Below, piece by piece: positions 3,568 to 55,379 of a stretch of DNA of 58,234 nt. Both the position numbers and the translations under genes were made by a program. The DNA lies in assembly GCA_023132435.1 (NCBI GenBank), contig JAGLYF010000190.1, positions 1-58,234 of the forward strand, read 5' to 3'. The DNA comes from Calditrichia bacterium. Lineage in GTDB: Bacteria; Calditrichota; Calditrichia; JAJRVZ01. Within the stretch, counting starts at the first letter, position 1, and each line of letters starts with the position of its first letter. Under the pieces are notes generated by a model. The model was given only the letters and a program-made list of their open reading frames with translations. It had not been told where the DNA came from and ran no database searches.

Positions 3568-4749
3568 ATGTCTTCTGAAGTTCCAAAAATATTAGTTATT
3601 GAAGATGAAGATCAGGTCAGACAATCGTATGACGATATGTTTTCTTTTTTTGGATATGAAGTTGAGTCCGTCCCTAATGGCCGTGAAGGTATGTCACGGA
3701 TTACTAAGAAGGATTATGATATTGTCGTAACTGACCTCAATATGCCGGAAATGAATGGCATCGAGGTTTTAAAATATATAAAGAAGAAAAAACCCTATAT
3801 TGAAGTTATCGTTATTACCGGTTATGCCACTCTTGAAAATGCAATTGAGGCGATGAAGGTCGGCGCCTATGATTATTTTGCAAAACCGATAGATATCGAA
3901 CATGTCCGTATCGTCCTCACAAAATGTGTGCAAAAAATACAATCCCGAAAAGAAAATGAAGAACTCCGTTCATTAACTCAAAGATTAAAAGAACTCAATG
4001 AACTGAAAGATAAATTTATTACGATAACTAATCACGAATTACGCACACCTGTGACAGTCTTAAAAGGATATATTGAACTAATTGATTATTTTCTCGAAGA
4101 CAACCGGAATGAAAATATTAATGAAGCGATCGAAATTGTTACTGAAACCATGCGTGAATTGGTGGGAATCGTTGAGCAGATGCATGATATCTCTTCATTT
4201 GATTATGGTAAAAAACGTCTGGTAACGGTTGATGTGGAGATTGAGAAGATACTCGAATTGATATATAAAGAAATGAAAGTATTATTCGAAAAACGTAAGA
4301 TTAAGTTTGATCTTAACCTCGATAGCTCTGGTATGATTGTATCTGGTGATGATAAACAGCTAAAAAGAAGCTTGCGTGAACTCCTGCAAAATGCTCTCAA
4401 ATTTACTCCGGAAGGTGGCCATGTTGAGTTAGAGTATTCTATAAACAAAAAAAATAAAAAATTATACATTAAGGTAAAGGATGATGGAATAGGTATTCCA
4501 GGTGATAAATTAGATCTTGTATTCGAGCCTTTTTATGAGGTCCAAAATGTGATAAATCATATGACATCGAAAACTGAGTTTATGGGAGGGGGTATTGGTT
4601 TAGGTTTGACTCTTGCCAAAGAGGTTTTTGAATCTCATGAAGGGGAATTATTGTTGGAAAGTGAGGAGAACCGTGGTAGCACCTTTACAGTTGTTTTACC
4701 CTATAAAGATCCTCAAAATCAGGATAATGAACCATCCGCTACTGCCTAA
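3568..4749 (+). CDS. REC-first hybrid histidine kinase (receiver + HisKA + HATPase_c, no TM or sensor domain)
   Basis: Receiver domain (ILVIEDE...TDLNMPEMNG). H-box ITNHELRTPVT, N-box LLQNALKFTPEGG, G1 VKDDGIGIP, G2 GGGIGLGL. Confidence 0.9.
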   Translation: MSSEVPKILVIEDEDQVRQSYDDMFSFFGYEVESVPNGREGMSRITKKDYDIVVTDLNMPEMNGIEVLKYIKKKKPYIEVIVITGYATLENAIEAMKVGAYDYFAKPIDIEHVRIVLTKCVQKIQSRKENEELRSLTQRLKELNELKDKFITITNHELRTPVTVLKGYIELIDYFLEDNRNENINEAIEIVTETMRELVGIVEQMHDISSFDYGKKRLVTVDVEIEKILELIYKEMKVLFEKRKIKFDLNLDSSGMIVSGDDKQLKRSLRELLQNALKFTPEGGHVELEYSINKKNKKLYIKVKDDGIGIPGDKLDLVFEPFYEVQNVINHMTSKTEFMGGGIGLGLTLAKEVFESHEGELLLESEENRGSTFTVVLPYKDPQNQDNEPSATA

Positions 4750-11311: not shown

Positions 11312-11486
11312 TACTCTATTTTCCGATATCAGTTGTATTTTTTAAAATATAGATAAATGGTTATATTATTTCAAAATATTTCTGATTTTTTGTATGAATT
11401 CAAATATTTACTATGACTGTTAATTAGCCTGAATTATTCAAATTAAAATGTGATGAAGATTATAAGTAACATATAATCAAAGATTT

Positions 11487-11726
11487 AATTCCCCCTTTGC
11501 TGGGGCTGTTGCAGAATCGATAAAATTAGCCGTAAATGTCATACCTGCGAAAGCAGGTATCCATGGATCCCCGCTTGCGCGGGGATGACAACTTGGGTTG
11601 GGGTATAAATTCCCGCTGGAGTTTACCCCGTACTTGATGCGGGGCGGGAATGACAATTTAAGACTTTTTCAGCACTAAAATTGTTAAATATTGATAATCT
11701 GCAACAGCCCCTGCTAAGGGGAAATT
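11487..11726. mobile_element. MITE-like element with 29-bp terminal inverted repeats and internal tetraloop hairpins
   Basis: The TIRs aattccccctttgctggggctgttgcaga (11487-11515) and tctgcaacagcccctgctaaggggaaatt (11698-11726) match 26/29. Internal hairpins are atacctgc-GAAA-gcaggtat and atccccgc-TTGC-gcggggat. No ORF is present. Confidence 0.7.
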
Positions 11727-11809
11727 AAACTTTTGAATCATCTTTCCGATGTTTCTAATAATAAATTATCGGAAGTCAGAAGAGAAACAAGAGTAAATAT
11801 GGAGAAGTA

Positions 11810-15837: not shown

Positions 15838-15842
15838 AAAGT

Positions 15843-16010
15843 AACCGCAAAAACACAAAGGAATAAATCACAAATAACAAATTTCAAATGACAAATAAAT
15901 TCCAATTTCAAATTATCAAAATGATTACTATAAGTGATTTTATATTTTGGTCATTGAGTTTTGATGTTTATTTGAGATTTGTTATTTGAAACCTTGGCAT
16001 CTTCGCGGTT
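15843..16010. repeat. 168-bp AT-rich fold-back with CAAAT/ACAAA word arms
   Basis: The outer ends aaccgcaaaaacacaaagg and ccttggcatcttcgcggtt pair. The inner words caaataacaaatttcaaat and atttgagatttgttatttg are also complementary. Confidence 0.75.
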
Positions 16011-16178
16011 AAGTCGTAAAAGCACAAAGTAGAATATTATTTCTTGCACCTGGATAAGGTTTTGGTTACTTTTATCAATCTACATCTTAAAATTTTGTCA
16101 AATATTTTAGATAAAAGAATTTAATAATAATCATACCGTCCGTCTATATATACTAAAGTGATTTGAAAGCATATTAAT

Positions 16179-25343: not shown

Positions 25344-25364
25344 TTTTCCCATGTTATAAGGAAA

Positions 25365-25399
25365 AACAACCCCCTAACCCCCTTTTCTAAGGGGGAATT
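25365..25399 (+). repeat. C5/G5 hairpin core module (copy 1 of 5)
   Basis: The sequence aacaaccccctaacccccttttctaagggggaatt is the same module found at 41526 (reverse), 51701 (reverse), 51829 and 55307. Confidence 0.85.
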
Positions 25400-25487
25400 A
25401 ACTTATTGGTAATACAAGGCTTATGCACTTATTTTTTAAAAATTGTGAATTAACTAGGGTAATAAATTCAAAATTTAAAAAAGCTTT

Positions 25488-27757: not shown

Positions 27758-28720
27758 ATGGAAGGATTAAGAGAATCGGCAGAGATAGCCCTGCGCGACT
27801 GTATGGCATTAAAAGAAAATGAAACTCTACTGGTTTTAACCGATGATAAAACGACAGAAATAGGTACGACTCTTTTTGAAGTTGGCAAAAAGCTGGCTGG
27901 CGACTCTGTACTTCTTGTCATGCCGGAACGGGAGGTTAATGGTCAGGAGCCTCCAGACGCAATTGCGGAATTGATGACAAAATATGATGTGGTGATATGT
28001 CCAACCGCTAAATCTTTAACCCATACAGAAGCAAGACGTAATGCCTGCAAAGCAGGCGCCCGGGTAGGTACGATGCCGGGGATTACGAATGAAGTGATGA
28101 TCCGTACGCTCAAAGCTGATTATCATGGGATTGCAGAGCGCACCTATCAATTAAGCAAAATCCTTGATGAAGCTAATGGGGTACATATTACAACAGCAAA
28201 GGGAACAGATATTGTCATCCCAATTAAGGGTATAAAAGCTATTTCGTCAACCGGGCTTGTTACGGAAAAAGGATCATTTGGAAATTTGCCGAGCGGTGAG
28301 TCTTATCTGATGCCTGCTGAAGGTCAAACCAATGGTGTTTTTGTCGTTGATGGTTCATTTGCAGGTGTTGGAAAAATTAAAGATATGCCAATCACACTTA
28401 CCGCCGAAAATGGTTTTGCCACGAAAATCGAAGGTGGTAAAGAAGCGGTAAAATTAATTGAATTGCTTGAACCCATGGGCAAAAAAGCTTATAACATTGC
28501 AGAGTTAGGAATAGGCACCAATGATCAGGCAATTGTGACCGGCAAGATTCTCGAAGATGAAAAAGTGATGGGAACCATACATATCGCTCTTGGAAATAAT
28601 CTTAGCATGGGTGGAACTTGTAATGTCGGTATTCATCTGGATGGTGTTATTCTTGAACCTACGGTTAGGGTGGATGGTAACCTGATCATGGAAAATGGAA
28701 AATTGAAGATTGATGATTAA
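27758..28720 (+). CDS. aminopeptidase (M29/AmpS-like family)
   Basis: 320 aa whose blocks resemble the thermophilic aminopeptidase family (N-terminal LVLTDD..., C-terminal GTIHIALGNN...GIHLDGVI). The assignment is from memory of the family. Confidence 0.6.
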   Translation: MEGLRESAEIALRDCMALKENETLLVLTDDKTTEIGTTLFEVGKKLAGDSVLLVMPEREVNGQEPPDAIAELMTKYDVVICPTAKSLTHTEARRNACKAGARVGTMPGITNEVMIRTLKADYHGIAERTYQLSKILDEANGVHITTAKGTDIVIPIKGIKAISSTGLVTEKGSFGNLPSGESYLMPAEGQTNGVFVVDGSFAGVGKIKDMPITLTAENGFATKIEGGKEAVKLIELLEPMGKKAYNIAELGIGTNDQAIVTGKILEDEKVMGTIHIALGNNLSMGGTCNVGIHLDGVILEPTVRVDGNLIMENGKLKIDD

Positions 28721-28721
28721 A

Positions 28722-28759
28722 TTTGTAGAGACGTTGCATGCAACGTCTCTACAAATTTT
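28722..28759 (+). terminator. perfect 34-bp palindrome (TGTAGAGACG family) + T4; terminator-like, possibly also a regulator site
   Basis: The palindrome tttgtagagacgttgcatgcaacgtctctacaaa is followed by tttt and starts 2 nt after the aminopeptidase stop. It lies ~130-160 bp upstream of the sigma-54 promoter. Confidence 0.5.
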
Positions 28760-37727: not shown

Positions 37728-37858
37728 TTAAATAATTCTTTTGTTTGCCCCGAGCCCTCGGGGCGCTATGAATAGATCAAACTAATATATTATTTTTTTT
37801 ATTTAATCGCTAATAATATTATATTTGCCGGATAATAAAAGTATTTATCAGCCTTGAT

Positions 37859-37963
37859 AATTCGTGAACCAATTCGTGTTCATCCCGTGAGATATTATTG
37901 AGCATTGTCCAGATTAATTCAAATAACCTTGTTTATCTCACGGGATAAATTCGTGGACTAATT
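37859..37963. repeat. right-arm-type AATTCGTG words plus a cccgtgagat/atctcacggg hairpin, abutting the truncated gene
   Basis: aattcgtgaaccaattcgtgtt (37859-37880), the inverted repeat 37884-37893 / 37935-37944, then aaattcgtggactaatt (37947-37963). Confidence 0.8.
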
Positions 37964-37971
37964 ATTAAATT

Positions 37972-38157
37972 CTAAAAAAAGATCGCAGGAGAGGGTTTTA
38001 TGATACGTGTTTTTTCTATCGTATTGACTTCTGTATGTTCAATAATCAGTTTTGTATTGCCAGCCATCAAATAATCCATGGTTGCAAGTTTTTCATTATT
38101 TATTTCAATGTAGAATGAACCCTTTTTGCCATCAAAAAAGTGTTGTATTTCTTGCAT
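37972..38157 (-). pseudogene. 3'-truncated remnant of a small GNAT-like (YjdJ-type) acetyltransferase gene
   Basis: The N-terminal ~45 aa (FYIE...MDY...LIIEHTEV) fit the ~90-aa family as I remember it. Similarity stops right after HTEV and none continues in the other frames. Repeat-element ends flank the remnant. Confidence 0.4.
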
Positions 38158-38220
38158 TGTATTGTCTCTCCAGTTTAATCAATTTGATCTATTCATATCC
38201 CGCCCAGGCGTAAATTTAAT

Positions 38221-38335
38221 GGGTCCACGAATTACACGAATTTTATAACCCTCCCCATCCCCGAAGGCTCGGGGACTTCCCCTCCCTTACGTATAAGGGA
38301 GGGGAATATGGGGTGGATTAATTCGGGATGACAAA
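38221..38335. repeat. CACGAATT left end fused to C-rich multi-hairpin module
   Basis: gggtccacgaattacacgaatttt is followed by the hairpins ccccga-aggc-tcgggg (38259-38274) and cccctccctta-cgta-taagggagggg (38279-38304), then gggatgacaaa. Confidence 0.8.
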
Positions 38336-40370: not shown

Positions 40371-40431
40371 CTAATAATTCTGGGAACATTTTCCCCTTCG
40401 AAATCGTTTAGGCTAAAAGTATCTATGATTC

Positions 40432-40503
40432 TGTAGAGACGTAGCATGCTACGTCTCTACAATAAATCTACTCTACAATAAATCTACGTCTCTACAATAA
40501 ACC
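40432..40503. repeat. 30-bp perfect palindrome (TGTAGAGACG family) followed by tandem triplication of its right half
   Basis: The palindrome tgtagagacgtagcatgctacgtctctaca spans 40432-40461. The unit (acgt)ctctacaataaatct then occurs three times through 40503. Confidence 0.85.
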
Positions 40504-41351: not shown

Positions 41352-41352
41352 T

Positions 41353-41558
41353 CTGGATGCTGGATGCTAGATACTGGATGTTAGACGTAAGACGCTAGAA
41401 GCAAGACGCCCCTACATTTCACGTTTGAAGTTTCACGTCTTAAATCTTGTTCCGATGCTCTGCGTCGGAACATACTGATGTAATTTAGGGCTACGACGCG
41501 GAGCATCGTAGCCAGTAACAATTTGTTCCCCCTTAGTAAAGGGGGGTAGGGGGTTGTT
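41353..41558. repeat. composite: 7-nt stutter arm (CTGGATG/TTAGACG words), two interlocking hairpins, C5/G5 core
   Basis: ctggatgctggatgctagatactggatgttagacgtaagacgctagaagcaagacg, hairpins at 41449-41471 and 41489-41513, and the core ttcccccttagtaaaggggggtagggggttgtt at 41526-41558. Confidence 0.8.
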
Positions 41559-42291
41559 TATCTATATACTTAGCAATCATTTTTTCTGCTTTTTCAATAT
41601 CTTCCGCCGTATCAATTTCGATGCACCGATAATCCCCGACATCCATCGCATAGAGTTTTTGACCATCATCAATCGCATCCTGAAAAGCGGCCTCATAGAA
41701 ATCGTTAACCCGACCCTCAGTTACAACGCGATGATATAATTTTTCAAACAACACTTCAAGAAATCCGGCTTCAAATTTTTCTATACCTATCGATTCGCCT
41801 GCTGCTAATTGAGGATCTATTCCCTTACCAATTTTAGTAACTTGATTATCTTCTTTAGCGATTACTTTCATCTCCTCTTCACCGAGTACATGATCAGATC
41901 GCACAGCGAGATAATTTCCGGGTCCGGAAATAAGAAGCAATTCCACAATACGCCGATCAAATATAATATCACTGTCCATTAGCAGAATATCAGTGTCCTG
42001 AGTATAGTCTTTTATCAGCCAGAGTGAATAGATATTATTTGTGGCGTCATAAATCTCGTTATAGATAAACGTAACTTTCAGAGAGGGATAAGTAATATCT
42101 ATAAATGATCTGATTTTTTCTTCCAAATAACCGGTTACTATTATCAACTCTTCAATTGCATGATCGATAAGATTATCAATCGTTCTTTCAAGAATAGATT
42201 TCTGGCCCAATTTAAGTAGGCATTTTGGTGTGATATCAGTAAGAGGTCTTAGTCGGGAGGAGATCCCTGCGGCCAGAATAACAGCTTTCAT
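41533..42291 (-). CDS. sugar/alcohol-phosphate nucleotidyl(cytidylyl)transferase (LicC/NTP_transf-like)
   Basis: N-terminal MKAVILAAGISSRLRPLT..PKCLL motif. The start overlaps the upstream stop by 1 nt (TAATG). The last 8 codons lie inside the C5/G5 repeat core. Confidence 0.8.
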   Translation of the reverse strand: MKAVILAAGISSRLRPLTDITPKCLLKLGQKSILERTIDNLIDHAIEELIIVTGYLEEKIRSFIDITYPSLKVTFIYNEIYDATNNIYSLWLIKDYTQDTDILLMDSDIIFDRRIVELLLISGPGNYLAVRSDHVLGEEEMKVIAKEDNQVTKIGKGIDPQLAAGESIGIEKFEAGFLEVLFEKLYHRVVTEGRVNDFYEAAFQDAIDDGQKLYAMDVGDYRCIEIDTAEDIEKAEKMIAKYIDKQPPTPLY

Positions 42292-44203: not shown

Positions 44204-44293
44204 ATGAATGTCCTTCTTTTCCTGACTTTTTCGTGAAGCATCATAATCTACAAACCGGATCCTATAAACTTCAACTAATCGGATGCTTTTTTT

Positions 44294-44514
44294 CGGTTCT
44301 CGTTACTCGTTTCTCGTCTCTCGTTACTCGTTTCTCGCCGCTCGATATCGGTTGGCAAACTCAGTTCCCCCTTAATCCTCCTTTCCCGCACTCGCGGGAC
44401 TCAGGACAGGCTCTTTCCTAAGAGGGAGCAGATTTTTATCAACCATCATACTGCAGTAAGTATCGAGAAACGAGCATCGAGTATCGAATTCCAAGTTCCG
44501 AATTCCGAATTTCC
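44294..44514. repeat. 7-nt stutter-arm element (TCTCGTT/ACTCGTT words) around an expanded C-rich core
   Basis: The left arm has 7 units of nCTCGnn (44294-44351). The core is ttcccccttaatcctcctttcccgcactcgcgggac...taagagggag. The right arm is tatcgagaaacgagcatcgagtatcgaa followed by ttccgaa words. Confidence 0.85.
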
Positions 44515-47186: not shown

Positions 47187-47480
47187 ATTAAAATTATTTT
47201 GATTCTGGTTTTATTTTATGAGGTAGCCCATCAGCCCGCCCCAACATTGGTCATTGAATCTTCCTTGTTGAATATTGGGCCTTCTATCCTTGGGAAACTA
47301 AATCTATCTCATTGTTATTCTGTTATAGGTCATCCCTATGGGACTTCATGTTTTGGGGATGTCTGAATTACCCCGGACTTCCGTCCGGGGCTAGTCTTGG
47401 GCCATCCCTTCGGGATTCTTATTTTGTAACTAATCTAGTTTACGGATTAAATAAATACATAAATCCGTGGTCTATTACAA

Positions 47481-47589
47481 CCCCCTTAGTCCCTCCTTCG
47501 GCTTCGCTCAGGATAGGCTCTTTTTTAAGGGGGAGATGAATTTTTATCATCCGGTATCTCGTATCGAGAAACGAGTACCGAGTACCGAT
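47481..47589. repeat. half-copy (core + right arm) of the 44294-type element
   Basis: cccccttagtccctccttcggcttcgctcaggataggctcttttttaagggggag...tatcgagaaacgagtaccgagtaccgat aligns with 44367-44488. Confidence 0.8.
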
Positions 47590-51051: not shown

Positions 51052-51645
51052 TTGAAAAAAGCCCTCACTCTTTTATTGATTTCTTTATCTATGAATATAC
51101 CAATACAGGCGCAACAGATATTTGGCATATCCTATGATATATCTATTCCCACTCTGGATACAAAAGAGTTTGTAAACAATATTAGTTTGGTTGGGTTTGG
51201 ATTGGATGCCAGGGAAATGAGGCACGGTAAAGTCTCTTTTGGTGTAACATTTCATTGGAATTCATTTAAAGATGATCGCCTTGAAAGAGTCAATACGGGA
51301 GATGGAGATTTTATTTCAATCGATGACCGCTCACTGGAATCATTTCCTCTCCTTGTTAACAGTCATTTTTATTTCTTCTCAGAAATTGAGTCCTTTCGTC
51401 CATTTTTCGGCGCAAATATTGGAACCTATTTTATTATCACGCGCCGGAGTGTGGATGGTGTCAGAAGATCGGATAAAAACTGGCACTTTGGATTAGCACC
51501 CGATATAGGTTTTATGTTACACTTTATGCAGGATGTTCATATTATGCTCACTCTGCGTTATAATTATGCGGTAAAGACTGGTGGCTCTCCGGCTCAAACC
51601 TATTGGAATGTTATTTTTGGTTTTGTTTCTATCAGTTTATTTTGA
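51052..51645 (+). CDS. small outer-membrane beta-barrel protein (paralog of 48537-49136)
   Basis: The TTG start is supported by the signal peptide KKALTLLLISLSMNIPIQAQ. The protein ends in ...SISLF (aromatic terminus). Confidence 0.5.
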   Translation: MKKALTLLLISLSMNIPIQAQQIFGISYDISIPTLDTKEFVNNISLVGFGLDAREMRHGKVSFGVTFHWNSFKDDRLERVNTGDGDFISIDDRSLESFPLLVNSHFYFFSEIESFRPFFGANIGTYFIITRRSVDGVRRSDKNWHFGLAPDIGFMLHFMQDVHIMLTLRYNYAVKTGGSPAQTYWNVIFGFVSISLF

Positions 51646-51647
51646 TA

Positions 51648-51931
51648 CCGGATGCTGGATACTTGATAGATGATACAGTCTGATGGTTGATAAAAATCTG
51701 TTCCCCCTTATCAAAGGGGGACTAAGGGGGTTGTTGGAATTTGGTAGCAAGAAACAGAATACGAGATACGTTATGTAAAGGCGGGTTCAGAAACCGGGCC
51801 CTACATCCAATATCCAACATTCATATCAAAACACCCCCCTTAATCCCCCCTTGATAGGGGGGAAATAGATCTCTGCCATCCGATATCCTTTATCACGAAT
51901 CTTGTATCCAAAATCCAACATCTAATATCGA
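51648..51931. repeat. composite element: GGATG/ATCC word arms enclosing two inverted C5/G5 cores
   Basis: The arms are ccggatgctggatacttgatagatgataca and tgtatccaaaatccaacatctaatatcgag. The cores are at 51701-51735 (reverse) and 51829-51865 (forward). Confidence 0.8.
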
Positions 51932-52035
51932 GTCCCATTGATTAAATGCAAAAATTGTCTTAAAATCTAAATATTGTTAAAGAATATCCGATAAATGTTC
52001 ATATAACAAGTCAATTGAATTAAGGAGGCGTTCTA

Positions 52036-54022: not shown

Positions 54023-54070
54023 TGTTCCCTTAACCCTTCACCATGATGTGCTATTTTCAAGTTTTTTTAT

Positions 54071-54313
54071 CCACGAATTACACGAACTATTCCATAAATA
54101 TTTAACCTGATCTATAGCATAAATTTCTTGCGCAAAGGCGCTAAGACGTAAAGAAATAATTATTTATAAGGAATAGATTTAATTTAAAATTCAATTTCAC
54201 AATCTTGACATAAATTATTCAAAAATAAATCGTTGCGTCGCTGCGTCGTCGCGAGAAATGAATTATCCCGGTTAGTAGATATTCTTAAAATTCGTGGACT
54301 AATTCGTGGACCC
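54071..54313. repeat. long CACGAATT-type element (243 bp)
   Basis: The left end is ccacgaattacacgaac. An internal gagaaatgaattatcccgg motif is shared with 31036 (reverse) and 49287. The right end is aaaattcgtggactaattcgtggaccc, 3 nt from the stop codon of the next gene. Confidence 0.8.
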
Positions 54314-54315
54314 AT

Positions 54316-55224: not shown

Positions 55225-55233
55225 ATTTTATAA

Positions 55234-55375
55234 GTGTTCAAAGGTTCTGGGTTCTGGGTTAACCTCTGAACCTTGAACAGTGAACCCAAAACCTGTGAAC
55301 ATGGCAAACACCCCCCTTTGTCCCCCCTCAAGGGGGGAATTCCCGGGGTAAACCCAGAACGGTGAACTCTGAACC
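55234..55375. repeat. 7-nt stutter-arm element (GGTTCTG / CAGAACC words) around a C5/G5 core
   Basis: gtgttcaaaggttctgggttctgggtt, then the core aaacacccccctttgtcccccctcaaggggggaatt (55307-55341), then aacccagaacggtgaactctgaacc. It fills the whole spacer between two co-directional genes. Confidence 0.85.
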
Positions 55376-55379
55376 TCCT

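Follow-up and report, generated by a model that had tools for sequence, protein, structure and literature searches.

The intergenic regions of a 58,234-nt stretch of DNA from a Calditrichia bacterium (contig JAGLYF010000190.1; the whole stretch is hereafter called the window) contain five full copies of a short repeat, the C5/G5 module, in which two C-runs are followed by a complementary G-run. The core of this module is a cross-phylum repeat resembling REP (repetitive extragenic palindromic) sequences, and it represents a variant not previously described by sequence. The five copies are probably orphans of a widespread REP-like family whose cognate enzyme would be a DUF559 nuclease, and the arrays of short words that form arms around some of them belong to a separate layer of repeats similar to the short tandemly repeated repetitive (STRR) sequences. 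Few non-coding features of bacterial genomes are as common as REP-like repeats, which are regarded as lineage-specific. To our knowledge, a single enzyme family, the REP-associated tyrosine transposases (RAYTs), has so far been tied to them.

The C5/G5 module and its copies in the window

The five copies are located at 25365 (+), 41526 (-), 51701 (-), 51829 (+) and 55307 (+) and are 31-34 nt long; their positions and sequences, given in a preliminary description of this DNA, were confirmed. The loose pattern CCCCC-N3-12-CCCCC-N2-12-GGGGG matches these five loci alone in the window and has no match in 100 dinucleotide-preserving shuffles. A covariance model (R1) was built from an alignment (A1) of 64 copies taken exclusively from other genomes and was used to scan the window with filters off. 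Its full-length matches are exactly the same five copies, with 50.3-56.1 bits and E-values of about 1e-19 to 1e-21, and the next full-model match is the 5' half of a derivative at 47474, with 15.1 bits. The core, which had been proposed as a conserved repeat, is therefore real, as judged by these scores and by its copies in other genomes.

The module consists of a 5' tag ACA-N, a C-word, a T-starting linker of 2-6 nt, a second C-word, a loop of 4-8 nt, the complementary G-word, and A(AT). Three subtypes are distinguished: ACAT with run lengths 5/5/5 and the loop TTCAAA or TTCGAA, ACAA with 5/5/5 and a TTTTTTAA-like loop, and ACA followed by C6 with 6/6/6 and the loop TCAA or TCGA. The three run lengths agree, as 5/5/5 or 6/6/6, in 146 of 177 copies, and the tag base N is linked to the loop type. 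The boundaries were estimated from secondary copies in the same loci, which had not been selected by their flanks. About 85% of these keep ACA and 89% keep the A that follows the G-run, and nothing further out is conserved. Thus, the unit measures about 31-34 nt and is not accompanied by a target-site duplication.

It had been suggested that two alternative hairpins are possible, and this holds: the G-run is able to pair with either C-run, and both conformers are near-equal in energy. With DNA parameters, the proximal hairpin (second C-run and G-run) has a mean of -7.3 kcal/mol and the distal hairpin (first C-run and G-run) one of -6.5 kcal/mol over 118 unique copies; the distal form is at least as stable in 42 of these and is favoured at 55307. 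One covarying pair, UA in 47 against CG in 14 copies, was found in the proximal hairpin and is linked to the subtype. The distal hairpin can form in all copies, its pairs being invariant or showing one-sided changes, and covariation is uninformative for it. The module itself is a small stutter palindrome, with a tandem 8-11 nt word as its left arm and one complementary word as its right arm. In the 25365 copy, the left arm was reported by Tandem Repeats Finder (TRF) as two copies of AACCCCCT at 25368-25383. The duplicated left word combined with a single right word results in a bistable hairpin, and a second G-word, GGGGG-N-TGTT, located after the module closes it into a longer stem.

The copies in the window differ in their setting. 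The 25365 copy is solo, without stutter arms, and lies 22 nt past the stop codon of a Ser/Thr kinase-TPR gene. The 41526 copy encodes the last residues (..DKQPPTPLY) and the TAA stop of an open reading frame (ORF) of the NTP_transferase family at 41533-42291 (-). The pair at 51698 and 51828 forms an inverted repeat with 35-nt arms, which are 89% complementary and 94 nt apart, and the whole intergenic region around it folds as a single long hairpin (z -5.9).

Distribution of the module family

In a scan of one genome per GTDB species with the pattern AACANCCCCC-N2-6-CCCCC-N4-9-GGGGGAA, the module was found in at least 120 loci and, among the matches listed, in more than 15 phyla. The matches listed include Hydrogenedentota, many Bacteroidota, Nitrospirota, Nitrospinota, Calditrichota, KSB1, Desantisbacteria, Patescibacteria, Desulfobacterota, Acidobacteriota, Deferribacteres, Ignavibacteria, Chlorobi, Planctomycetota, Poribacteria, Cyanobacteria, Chloroflexota and some Proteobacteria. 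Tannerella forsythia ATCC 43037, Rufibacter, Nibribacter, Capnocytophaga, Arenibacter, Aquimarina and Winogradskyella are among the carriers in Bacteroidota, and the module is near-identical from Patescibacteria to Bacteroidota to Nitrospirota. A constrained pattern located it in 48 viral loci of IMG/VR. It is nearly absent from the plasmid and phage collections (2 and 1 weak blastn matches, respectively), so that no plasmid or phage vehicle is evident there.

The family is intergenic: only 33 of 183 copies lie inside crude ORFs, which cover 83% of the sequence, and 82% are outside. Convergent, divergent and tandem intergenic regions are occupied in proportion to their length, and between tandem genes 42 copies follow the gene orientation and 33 oppose it. 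The idea that copies might lie preferentially at gene 3' ends is not supported by these figures, and the build is not that of an intrinsic terminator, as the G-run is followed by AAT and not by a T-run (U-tract). The 183 copies comprise 94 solo open forms, 72 in inverted pairs, 10 in tandem and 7 solo closed forms. Inverted pairs, defined as copies within 250 nt, occur in both orders and are often of mixed subtype, as in the window. Tandem copies are exemplified by locus L070 with three units at a 37-nt period, and in the closed form a downstream GGGGG-N-TGTT pairs with ACA-N-CCCCC. Individual genomes use their own spelling. A Hydrogenedentes metagenome-assembled genome (MAG) carries 12 copies in 40 kb, nine of which have the linker TTGAT and the loop TTCAAA, and the copies of Rufibacter and Nibribacter use the linker TTCG. 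Such a dominant spelling per genome points to amplification within the genome.

Exact spellings of the module, as DNA or as RNA, gave no match in the literature. The core matches no Rfam family: a scan of the whole window at the gathering threshold returned Acido-Lenti-1 as its sole match, which is unrelated, and with permissive settings no match in the pair region (51600-51950) had an E-value under 1.9. Other identities were considered and dropped. A larger unit around the module, similar to an insertion sequence (IS), was not obtained, as the unit repeated in the MAG JAJRTW spans no more than about 120-140 nt and lies at contig ends. A resemblance to the tRNA T-arm fails on the reversed C/G polarity, and a G-quadruplex or i-motif on too few runs per strand.

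DUF559 genes bracketed by modules

ORFs between neighbouring modules were searched for a partner gene. Homologous genes of about 125 aa were found between modules in three unrelated genomes (L023, L118 and L070), and their products belong to DUF559 (Pfam PF04480, E 1e-25 to 1e-33). In L023, a Flavobacterium MAG, a module at 123-151, the ORF at 166-549 and an inverted module at 557-585 form a unit of 463 bp. L118 is a Bacteroidales MAG. L070 has a module pair, the ORF and three tandem modules, and the last codons and the stop of the ORF lie inside modules. A similar reading of DUF559 ORFs into the module is seen in L070 and in the Sphingomonas locus L220, as for the NTP_transferase ORF at 41533 in the window. 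DUF559 is a member of the Vsr-like PD-(D/E)XK clade, together with the homing endonuclease I-Bth0305I (PMC3424549; structures 3HRL and 3R3P). The T-subtype flanks both ends of the approximately 125-aa DUF559 gene in at least five genomic contexts of Bacteroidota.

As an independent test, homologues were searched by protein only. In 15-20 of the best 120 homologue clusters, the mis-called termini include peptides encoded by the module, such as SPFEGGQGG, PPFKGGRGD, HPPDPLQRGN, IPLPPSGKGE or ...TSP-stop. Six protein-selected homologues (P0357, P0283, P0254, P0293, P0241 and P0359) have modules on both sides in six of six cases; P0357, P0283, P0254 and P0359 are without a module-encoded peptide, P0241 has only a ...TP tail, which is doubtful, and the N-terminus of P0293 is extended by mis-calling. 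Upstream, ...GGGGG-nn-GGGGGATGTT lies 14-52 nt before the ATG, and downstream, ACATCCCCC-nnn-CCCCC-TTCAAA-GGGGGAA follows 0-180 nt past the stop. The six genes occupy two neighbourhoods, namely Omp85, ComEA-like, DUF559, rpsU and RsmE, DUF4159, DUF559, ValS.

More distant DUF559 genes (33-42% identity), from IMG/VR and plasmid records, are without the C5/G5 spelling, and many are bracketed by inverted modules of the same build, consisting of a hairpin, a linker and a second G-word. The module is CCCTTCTCC-ATG-GGGAGAAGG-TTAGG-TTGAGGG in L195, CCTCCCC-TATCA-GGGGAGG-CGA-GGAGGGG in the Magasanikbacteria locus L072, and CCCCTCCCC-TTCA-GGGGAGGGG-CC-GGGGGTGGGG in Sphingomonas parapaucimobilis (L220); in L198, it has the build seen at 38251 in the window. 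In L220 (NZ_CP155753.1 112555-112985), a cassette of about 430 bp with DUF559 and inverted CCCCTCCCC lies between sufB and sufC, the Fe-S assembly genes, and by its arrangement looks as if a mobile unit of very small size had been inserted. Similarly built modules also bracket the DUF559 genes of Deinococcus and Picosynechococcus PCC 7002. Overall, inverted repeats in the flanks reach z 5-25 in 16 of 29 DUF559 loci, among them Sphingomonas, Deinococcus, Picosynechococcus, Magasanikbacteria and IMG/VR contigs, and analogous modules with their own spelling bracket DUF559 in five lineages besides Bacteroidota.

Arrays were also observed beside DUF559 genes. L180 3400-3600 contains GACATCCCCCTGGCCCAGCACATAGAAA five times, as five 29-nt partial units starting at the module tag. 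L211 contains, at 2115-2500 and 3780-4100, 100-nt units that each start with GGGGGGATGTC, and its DUF559 gene is tandemly duplicated. It is a matter of speculation whether nick-primed slippage at modules generates some arrays.

Turnover at orthologous sites

At orthologous sites, the module may be kept, missing or interrupted, and target-site duplications were not seen. In L121, where the neighbouring hydrolase has 98% protein identity, the 55307 module (R1 51.4 bits) is kept together with its arms, with three single-nucleotide polymorphisms in about 150 nt. In L124 (93% nucleotide identity of the flanking genes), the 51701/51829 pair is absent and the outer GGATGCT words are kept; TAAGACG words and the remnant of a 5' gene part stand in place of the pair. 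In L128 (93% DPP-IV identity), the 25365 module is interrupted in its second C-run by the 38-nt TCCGCCAGTGGGCGGATCCCCGAGTACTCGGGGCGTGA, an insertion that corresponds to two other mini-hairpins and lacks a target-site duplication. This interrupted module shows directly how the derivatives at 44360 and 47474 arise. L129 (78% identity, syntenic over 22 kb) has no module at the site orthologous to 25365.

The word arrays change as well. Compared with 54023-54315 of the window, L121 3700-3990 has one extra ACACGAATT word in the CCACGAATT array. The synteny of L121 breaks inside the CCACGAATT hairpin, and the downstream genes differ, so that a stutter change and a rearrangement breakpoint were observed at one palindrome. 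The orthologous intergenic region at 15838-16178, whose neighbouring genes have 78% protein identity to L129, provides a comparison over a greater distance. Between 15838-16015 of the window and 702-860 of L129, the outer stem AACCGCAAA.../...TTGCGGTT is kept and the inner words are all swapped, with CAAATAA/TTATTTG in the window and GCGTAGA/CTACGC in L129. Both are long hairpins (z -2.3 and -2.5), and the core is absent. The behaviour of the arms is thus independent of the core.

Word arrays as a separate repeat layer

The intergenic regions of the window are crowded with short repeats, in which arrays of 7-10 nt words are followed by complementary arrays (+++/---), as determined by TRF and an inverted-repeat scan. 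TRF arrays with a period of 7-10 are present at 15865, 31072, 33606, 37550, 41353, 44289, 46438, 49211, 52620 and 55243, and the arm regions fold with z -2.3 to -5.9. The arm words were located by TRF and word clusters where the preliminary description had placed them. They are not entirely different in each copy, as had been claimed: CTGGATG at 41353 is GGATGCT at 51648 in another register, and 44294 and 47561 share CGAGAAA/TCTCGTT. The words shared among arm loci indicate a limited repertoire, and the words of 41352-41522 recur in L124 and L008. The description of the arms as idiosyncratic and hypervariable stands insofar as they are self-complementary, idiosyncratic and replaced wholesale in distant relatives; it does not apply to close strains, between which they are stable, as in L121.

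[quoted passage not shown] This is not supported: most stutter palindromes of the window are coreless, and most cores elsewhere are armless, as is the 25365 copy. The window contains at least ten word-stutter palindromes, and those at 2997, 15871, 33606, 46438, 49164, 49199 and 52621 are without a core. At 55225-55379, the core is off the apex, as the left-hand words fold on themselves. In other genomes, 27 of 183 modules have an array with a 6-12 nt period within 120 nt, compared with 6.8% of random positions, which is no more than expected from the shared intergenic location.

Tandem heptanucleotide arrays in intergenic regions, which are capable of forming hairpins and have no known function, are described as STRR in filamentous cyanobacteria (PMC2670836); other descriptions are as 'long simple sequence repeats' and, for Beggiatoaceae, Cyanobacteria and Bacteroidetes, as TAACTGA repeats (PMC4679880). 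The arms are STRR-like arrays of 7-9 nt words arranged as palindromes, and thus of an already-known kind, and they fill most intergenic regions with or without the module. In this way, two repeat layers are separated that a reading of intergenic DNA by eye would readily confuse.

Coding fragments were seen between such arms. In the window, an ORF of about 50 codons (minus strand, about 38160-37999) lies between CCACGAATT arms at 37950-38245 and is acetyltransferase-like by eye alone. At L124 1830-2170, GGATGCT/TAAGACG arms enclose the 5' fragment of a gene whose intact form is present in L127.

Derivatives, a sibling family and other mini-hairpins

The coordinates of the repeat features are given in Table 1. 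Three expanded relatives of the module had been reported, and two of them, at 44360 and 47474, are true derivatives with an insertion of 20-27 nt in the loop; the third, at 38250, belongs to a sibling family with a different module. The 44360 derivative was undetected by R1 because of its insertion and is located at the apex of the TCTCGTT/CGAGAAA stutter palindrome. The 38250 module is built from AACCCTCCCC, a nested CCCCGAAGGCTCGGGG hairpin, the hairpin CCCCTCCC-loop-GGGAGGGG and the closing word GGGGTGG. The same type of build was found in L121 5045-5110, in L129 19056-19173 and flanking the DUF559 gene in L198.

Table 1. Repeat features located in the window.
Feature	Position	Strand	Sequence or build	Evidence
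C5/G5 module, A-subtype	25363..25400	+	AACAA-C5-TAA-C5-TTTTCTAA-G5-AATT	R1 56.1 bits, E 1.4e-21
C5/G5 module, A-subtype	41523..41560	-	AACAA-C5-TA-C6-TTTACTAA-G5-AACA	R1 50.9 bits
C5/G5 module, A-subtype, left member of mixed-subtype inverted pair	51698..51737	-	AACAA-C5-TTAGT-C5-TTTGATAA-G5-AACA	R1 50.3 bits
C5/G5 module, C-subtype, right member of inverted pair	51828..51867	+	AACA-C6-TTAAT-C6-TTGATA-G6-AAAT	R1 53.6 bits
C5/G5 module, C-subtype, amid GGTTCTG/xxGAAC words	55305..55342	+	AACA-C6-TTTGT-C6-TCAA-G6-AATT	R1 51.4 bits
Derivative module	47474..47540	+	about 22 nt CGGCTTCGCTCAGGATAGGCTC inserted in hairpin loop	R1 15.1 bits, 5' half only
Derivative module homologous to 47474	44360..44432	+	longer loop insertion	fold z -3.7; missed by R1
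Sibling-family module, 'closed' form	38250..38322	+	CCCTCCCC words	sequence
260-bp element with 39-nt terminal inverted repeats (TIRs)	11477..11736	.	TIRs = single-word hairpins ACAG-CCCC-loop-GGGGG-AATT, 87% complementary	inverted-repeat scan
Stutter-word region	41352..41522	.	CTGGATG x4, TAAGACG x3, TTTCACG + complements	TRF, word clusters, fold z -4.5
7-nt word palindrome enclosing 44360 derivative	44289..44511	.	TCTCGTT/CGAGAAA	TRF 44289-44337 period 7, 7 copies; inverted repeat
Outer stem around module pair	51646..51935	.	GGATGCT-type words left, xxxATCC right	sequence, fold
7-nt words around 55305 module	55234..55375	.	GGTTCTG/xxGAAC	TRF 55243-55260, inverted repeat, fold
Stutter word	31072, 46438, 49199, 52621, 54070/54290		CACGAATTA	
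Stutter word	2997, 49164		CACGGAA/T	
Stutter word	37550		CACAGATTA	
Stutter word	33606		CACGAAGG	
Stutter word	15871		CAAATAA	
Stutter word	41355, 51650		GGATGCT	
Stutter word	41381		TAAGACG	
Stutter word	44296, 47565		TCTCGTT/CGAGAAA	
Stutter word	55243		GGTTCTG	

The TIR of the element at 11487 had been said to resemble the core. Against R1 this resemblance is not significant (4.5 bits, E 5.8). Support for it comes from L014, a Calditrichota MAG in which a full module is joined to the 35-nt tail of this TIR, with 93.6% identity over 47 nt. On the basis of this shared sequence, the 11477-11736 element is plausibly related to the C5/G5 module. Hairpins of the type GTCAT(A/T)CC-GC-loop-GC-GG(A/T)ATCC, for example TGTCATACCTGCGAAAGCAGGTATCCATGGATCCCCGCTTGCGCGGGGATGACA, were found inside the element (window 11537-11660), and their occurrence in non-orthologous intergenic regions of relatives (L129 12230-12320; L124 2934-2987) indicates another mobile mini-hairpin family.

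Further mini-hairpins were observed. The family CCCCGAG-nnn-CTCGGGG(CG) is present in the window at 37749-37766 and 38263-38278, in L128 at 732-770 and in L125 at 259-276; it occurs solo, nested in the 38250 module and inserted in the C5/G5 module of L128. At 28719-28758 lies AAATTTGTAGAGACGTTGCA/TGCAACGTCTCTACAAATTT, a perfect palindrome of 20+20 nt. The region 40430-40500 contains TGTAGAGACGTAGCATGCTACGTCTCTACA and tandem CTACAATAAAT units, which belong to the same dispersed mini-palindrome family as 28719, also found in L129, L124 and L126. The Rfam match to Acido-Lenti-1 at 47371-47417 (+) scores 37.5 bits, just over the gathering threshold of 37 (E 6e-5), and sits in a 666-nt intergenic region rich in CCCnnnGGG hairpins, about 60 nt upstream of the 47474 derivative.

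The genes of the window are those of an ordinary housekeeping chromosome and include GltX, ArgS, MnmA, FabH, LipA, Ser/Thr kinases, DPP-IV, ABC, MscS and a GlcD/GlcF-like pair. No transposase and no DUF559 was found by Pfam among 40 window ORFs. Most of the remaining window ORFs have orthologues in the syntenic loci L121 and L129 that carry precomputed Pfam matches, none of which is a transposase or DUF559.

Proposed mechanism and alternative explanations

The module would be a selfish or mobile sequence acting at the DNA level, in line with its intergenic and unoriented placement, its genome-specific spelling and its occurrence as singlets, inverted pairs and tandems. A DUF559 nuclease would recognise or nick the hairpin and drive its copying. 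The DUF559 gene with its flanking modules would then form the autonomous unit, comparable to a REP/RAYT unit, and dispersed solo copies and pairs would be its non-autonomous progeny. That DUF559 acts on the module is suggested by the bracketing and by module spelling that co-varies with the DUF559 subfamily. The link between module and DUF559 is credible and apparently undescribed; judged by title and abstract, none of the papers found to mention DUF559 deals with repeats. We further infer the route of dispersal, the use of the same enzyme by the A and C subtypes of the window, and the connection of DUF559 to the window copies, the window encoding none.

A bolder version, which is possible and is put forward tentatively, is that DUF559 with inverted modules is the autonomous form of an undescribed pan-bacterial mini mobile element, and a second, non-HUH counterpart of the RAYT/REP system. 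Orphan modules would colonise intergenic regions in more than 15 phyla, the bistable hairpin or its slipped words would be the substrate of the nuclease, and nick-primed slippage may seed arrays. If the link is causal, DUF559, a very large family of unknown function, gains a testable function, a second model for the spread of tiny hairpins becomes available, and the junk ORFs and assembly breaks that recur in metagenomes are traced to one of their sources.

Several observations weigh against the proposed role of DUF559. The bracketing could mean gene regulation, or homing of the gene into the repeat, and not mobilisation of the repeat by the gene. Five of the six protein-selected cases in Bacteroidota are orthologous (Omp85, ComEA-like, DUF559, rpsU) and not independent events, and no flanking repeat was detected in 13 of 29 DUF559 loci, including E. 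coli, N. gonorrhoeae, Azospirillum, Sinorhizobium and eight IMG/VR contigs. By tblastn, no DUF559 gene is present in the window or in about 50 kb of close relatives. Neither the A nor the C subtype was itself seen to bracket DUF559, although P0295 is a DUF559-adjacent copy with an A-type loop. Mobility of the module is suggested by its presence and absence in diverged intergenic regions, among which there is no clean pair of filled and empty sites. We know of no established biochemical activity of DUF559.

A classical REP/REPIN system would explain much of the same material, with the module being mobilised as single-stranded DNA by an HUH/Y1 RAYT and ACA-N serving as a GTAG-like tag at the foot of the distal hairpin. 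Size, 5' tag, extragenic site, inverted pairs and per-genome spellings fit REPs, bacterial interspersed mosaic elements (BIMEs) and REPINs, the insertion in L128 lacks a target-site duplication, and RAYT subclasses 2.4 and 2.6 with 'atypical' REPs exist in Bacteroidetes (PMC6006769). However, neither a GT[AG]G nor a CGTC tag occurs in the module. A tblastn search with IS200-like and YafM-like probe sequences over about 0.9 Mb of module-bearing loci yielded a single Y1-like ORF (L100), 2 kb from a doubtful copy, and no Y1 gene next to a good copy. REPs are species-specific, whereas the module is near-identical across phyla, and the gene that it brackets is DUF559. A RAYT-driven origin is considered unlikely. 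An element selected by the host, such as a 3' stabiliser, a terminator-like hairpin or a nucleoid site that DUF559 genes merely use, is improbable to much the same degree. Whichever way it points, a strong G/C hairpin in AT-rich intergenic DNA would form in RNA, two copies in the window adjoin gene 3' ends (25365 and 41526), REPs are known to stabilise transcripts (PMC6006769), and the module is kept beside orthologous DUF559 genes whose proteins have diverged by about 35%. This reading does not account for the lack of an orientation or 3'-end preference, of a U-tract and of an Rfam family. Selfish repeats typically show tandem arrays, pairs of mixed subtype, nested insertions and a rapid gain and loss of copies between relatives, as the module does, and the asymmetric ACA-N and the first C-word are conserved although a simple hairpin does not need them.

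The composite element of the preliminary description, in which a conserved core nucleates or rides in freely varying arms, is largely refuted and has little probability left. The core does lie inside or beside stutter palindromes at 4-6 window loci, which fold better than shuffles, and the 5' part of the module is tandemly stuttered beside DUF559 genes in L180, L211 and L070, so that slippage primed by the module could seed some arrays. Against it stand the many coreless palindromes and armless cores, the replacement of words at orthologous sites without any core, and the stability of arms between close strains. Chance runs of C and G without biological unity would be conceivable for a short motif built from homopolymer runs, but this explanation is refuted by the shuffles, by the scores of 50-56 bits obtained with a model from other genomes, by the conserved ACA tag and by the linked run lengths; its probability is negligible. 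The five copies are thus best regarded as probable orphans of a REP-like family with a DUF559 partner, beside which the word arrays form their own layer.

Comparison with known systems

The arms share with STRR, the long simple sequence repeats of Mrazek 2007 and the TAACTGA repeats the intergenic tandem 7-nt (also 8-10 nt) words, the capacity to form hairpins and a strain-variable copy number. They differ from STRR in that the arrays of the window are systematically paired with complementary arrays to give long, often nested palindromes. In addition, the host is apparently Calditrichota-like and not a cyanobacterium, and orthologous sites can carry wholly different sets of words.

The ends of IS200/IS605 elements and MITEs resemble the module as small hairpins that are recognised as structures, are inserted without target-site duplication and have non-autonomous derivatives outnumbering the coding copy. 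However, no transposase of those families was found in the window ORFs or next to a good module copy in the loci searched, and the putative autonomous unit measures only about 430-470 bp (L023, L220). Neither TIRs matching an IS nor a TIR-plus-duplication signature was seen, and the flanks show no conservation or duplication beyond ACA...A.

A close likeness is to REP, BIME and REPIN sequences and the 'REPtrons' that they form with RAYTs in E. coli, Pseudomonas and Stenotrophomonas. These are imperfect palindromes of 20-40 nt with a conserved 5' tag, extragenic and high in copy number, and the module is likewise a short, extragenic, multi-copy palindrome (five copies in 58 kb). It occurs as singlets and as inverted pairs of differing subtypes (72 of 183 copies in inverted doublets), similar to the Y and Z REPs, each genome has its own sequence population, and inverted copies stand on both sides of one small nuclease gene. 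In contrast to REPs, the tag is ACA-N instead of GT[AG]G or CGTC and sits at the foot of the distal hairpin only, the stem is a homopolymer of 5-7 bp with a duplicated 5' word that makes it bistable, and near-identical copies extend across more than 15 phyla. The bracketed gene encodes a PD-(D/E)XK (DUF559/Vsr-like) nuclease and not an HUH/Y1 transposase. This nuclease fold family is shared with I-Bth0305I (PDB 3R3P) and the structural-genomics protein 3HRL. As a selfish, site-specific nuclease, I-Bth0305I provides a precedent within the DUF559 clade; its coding sequence lies in a phage intron and its cleavage target is a unique gene, whereas the DUF559 genes described here are free-standing between copies of a dispersed repeat.

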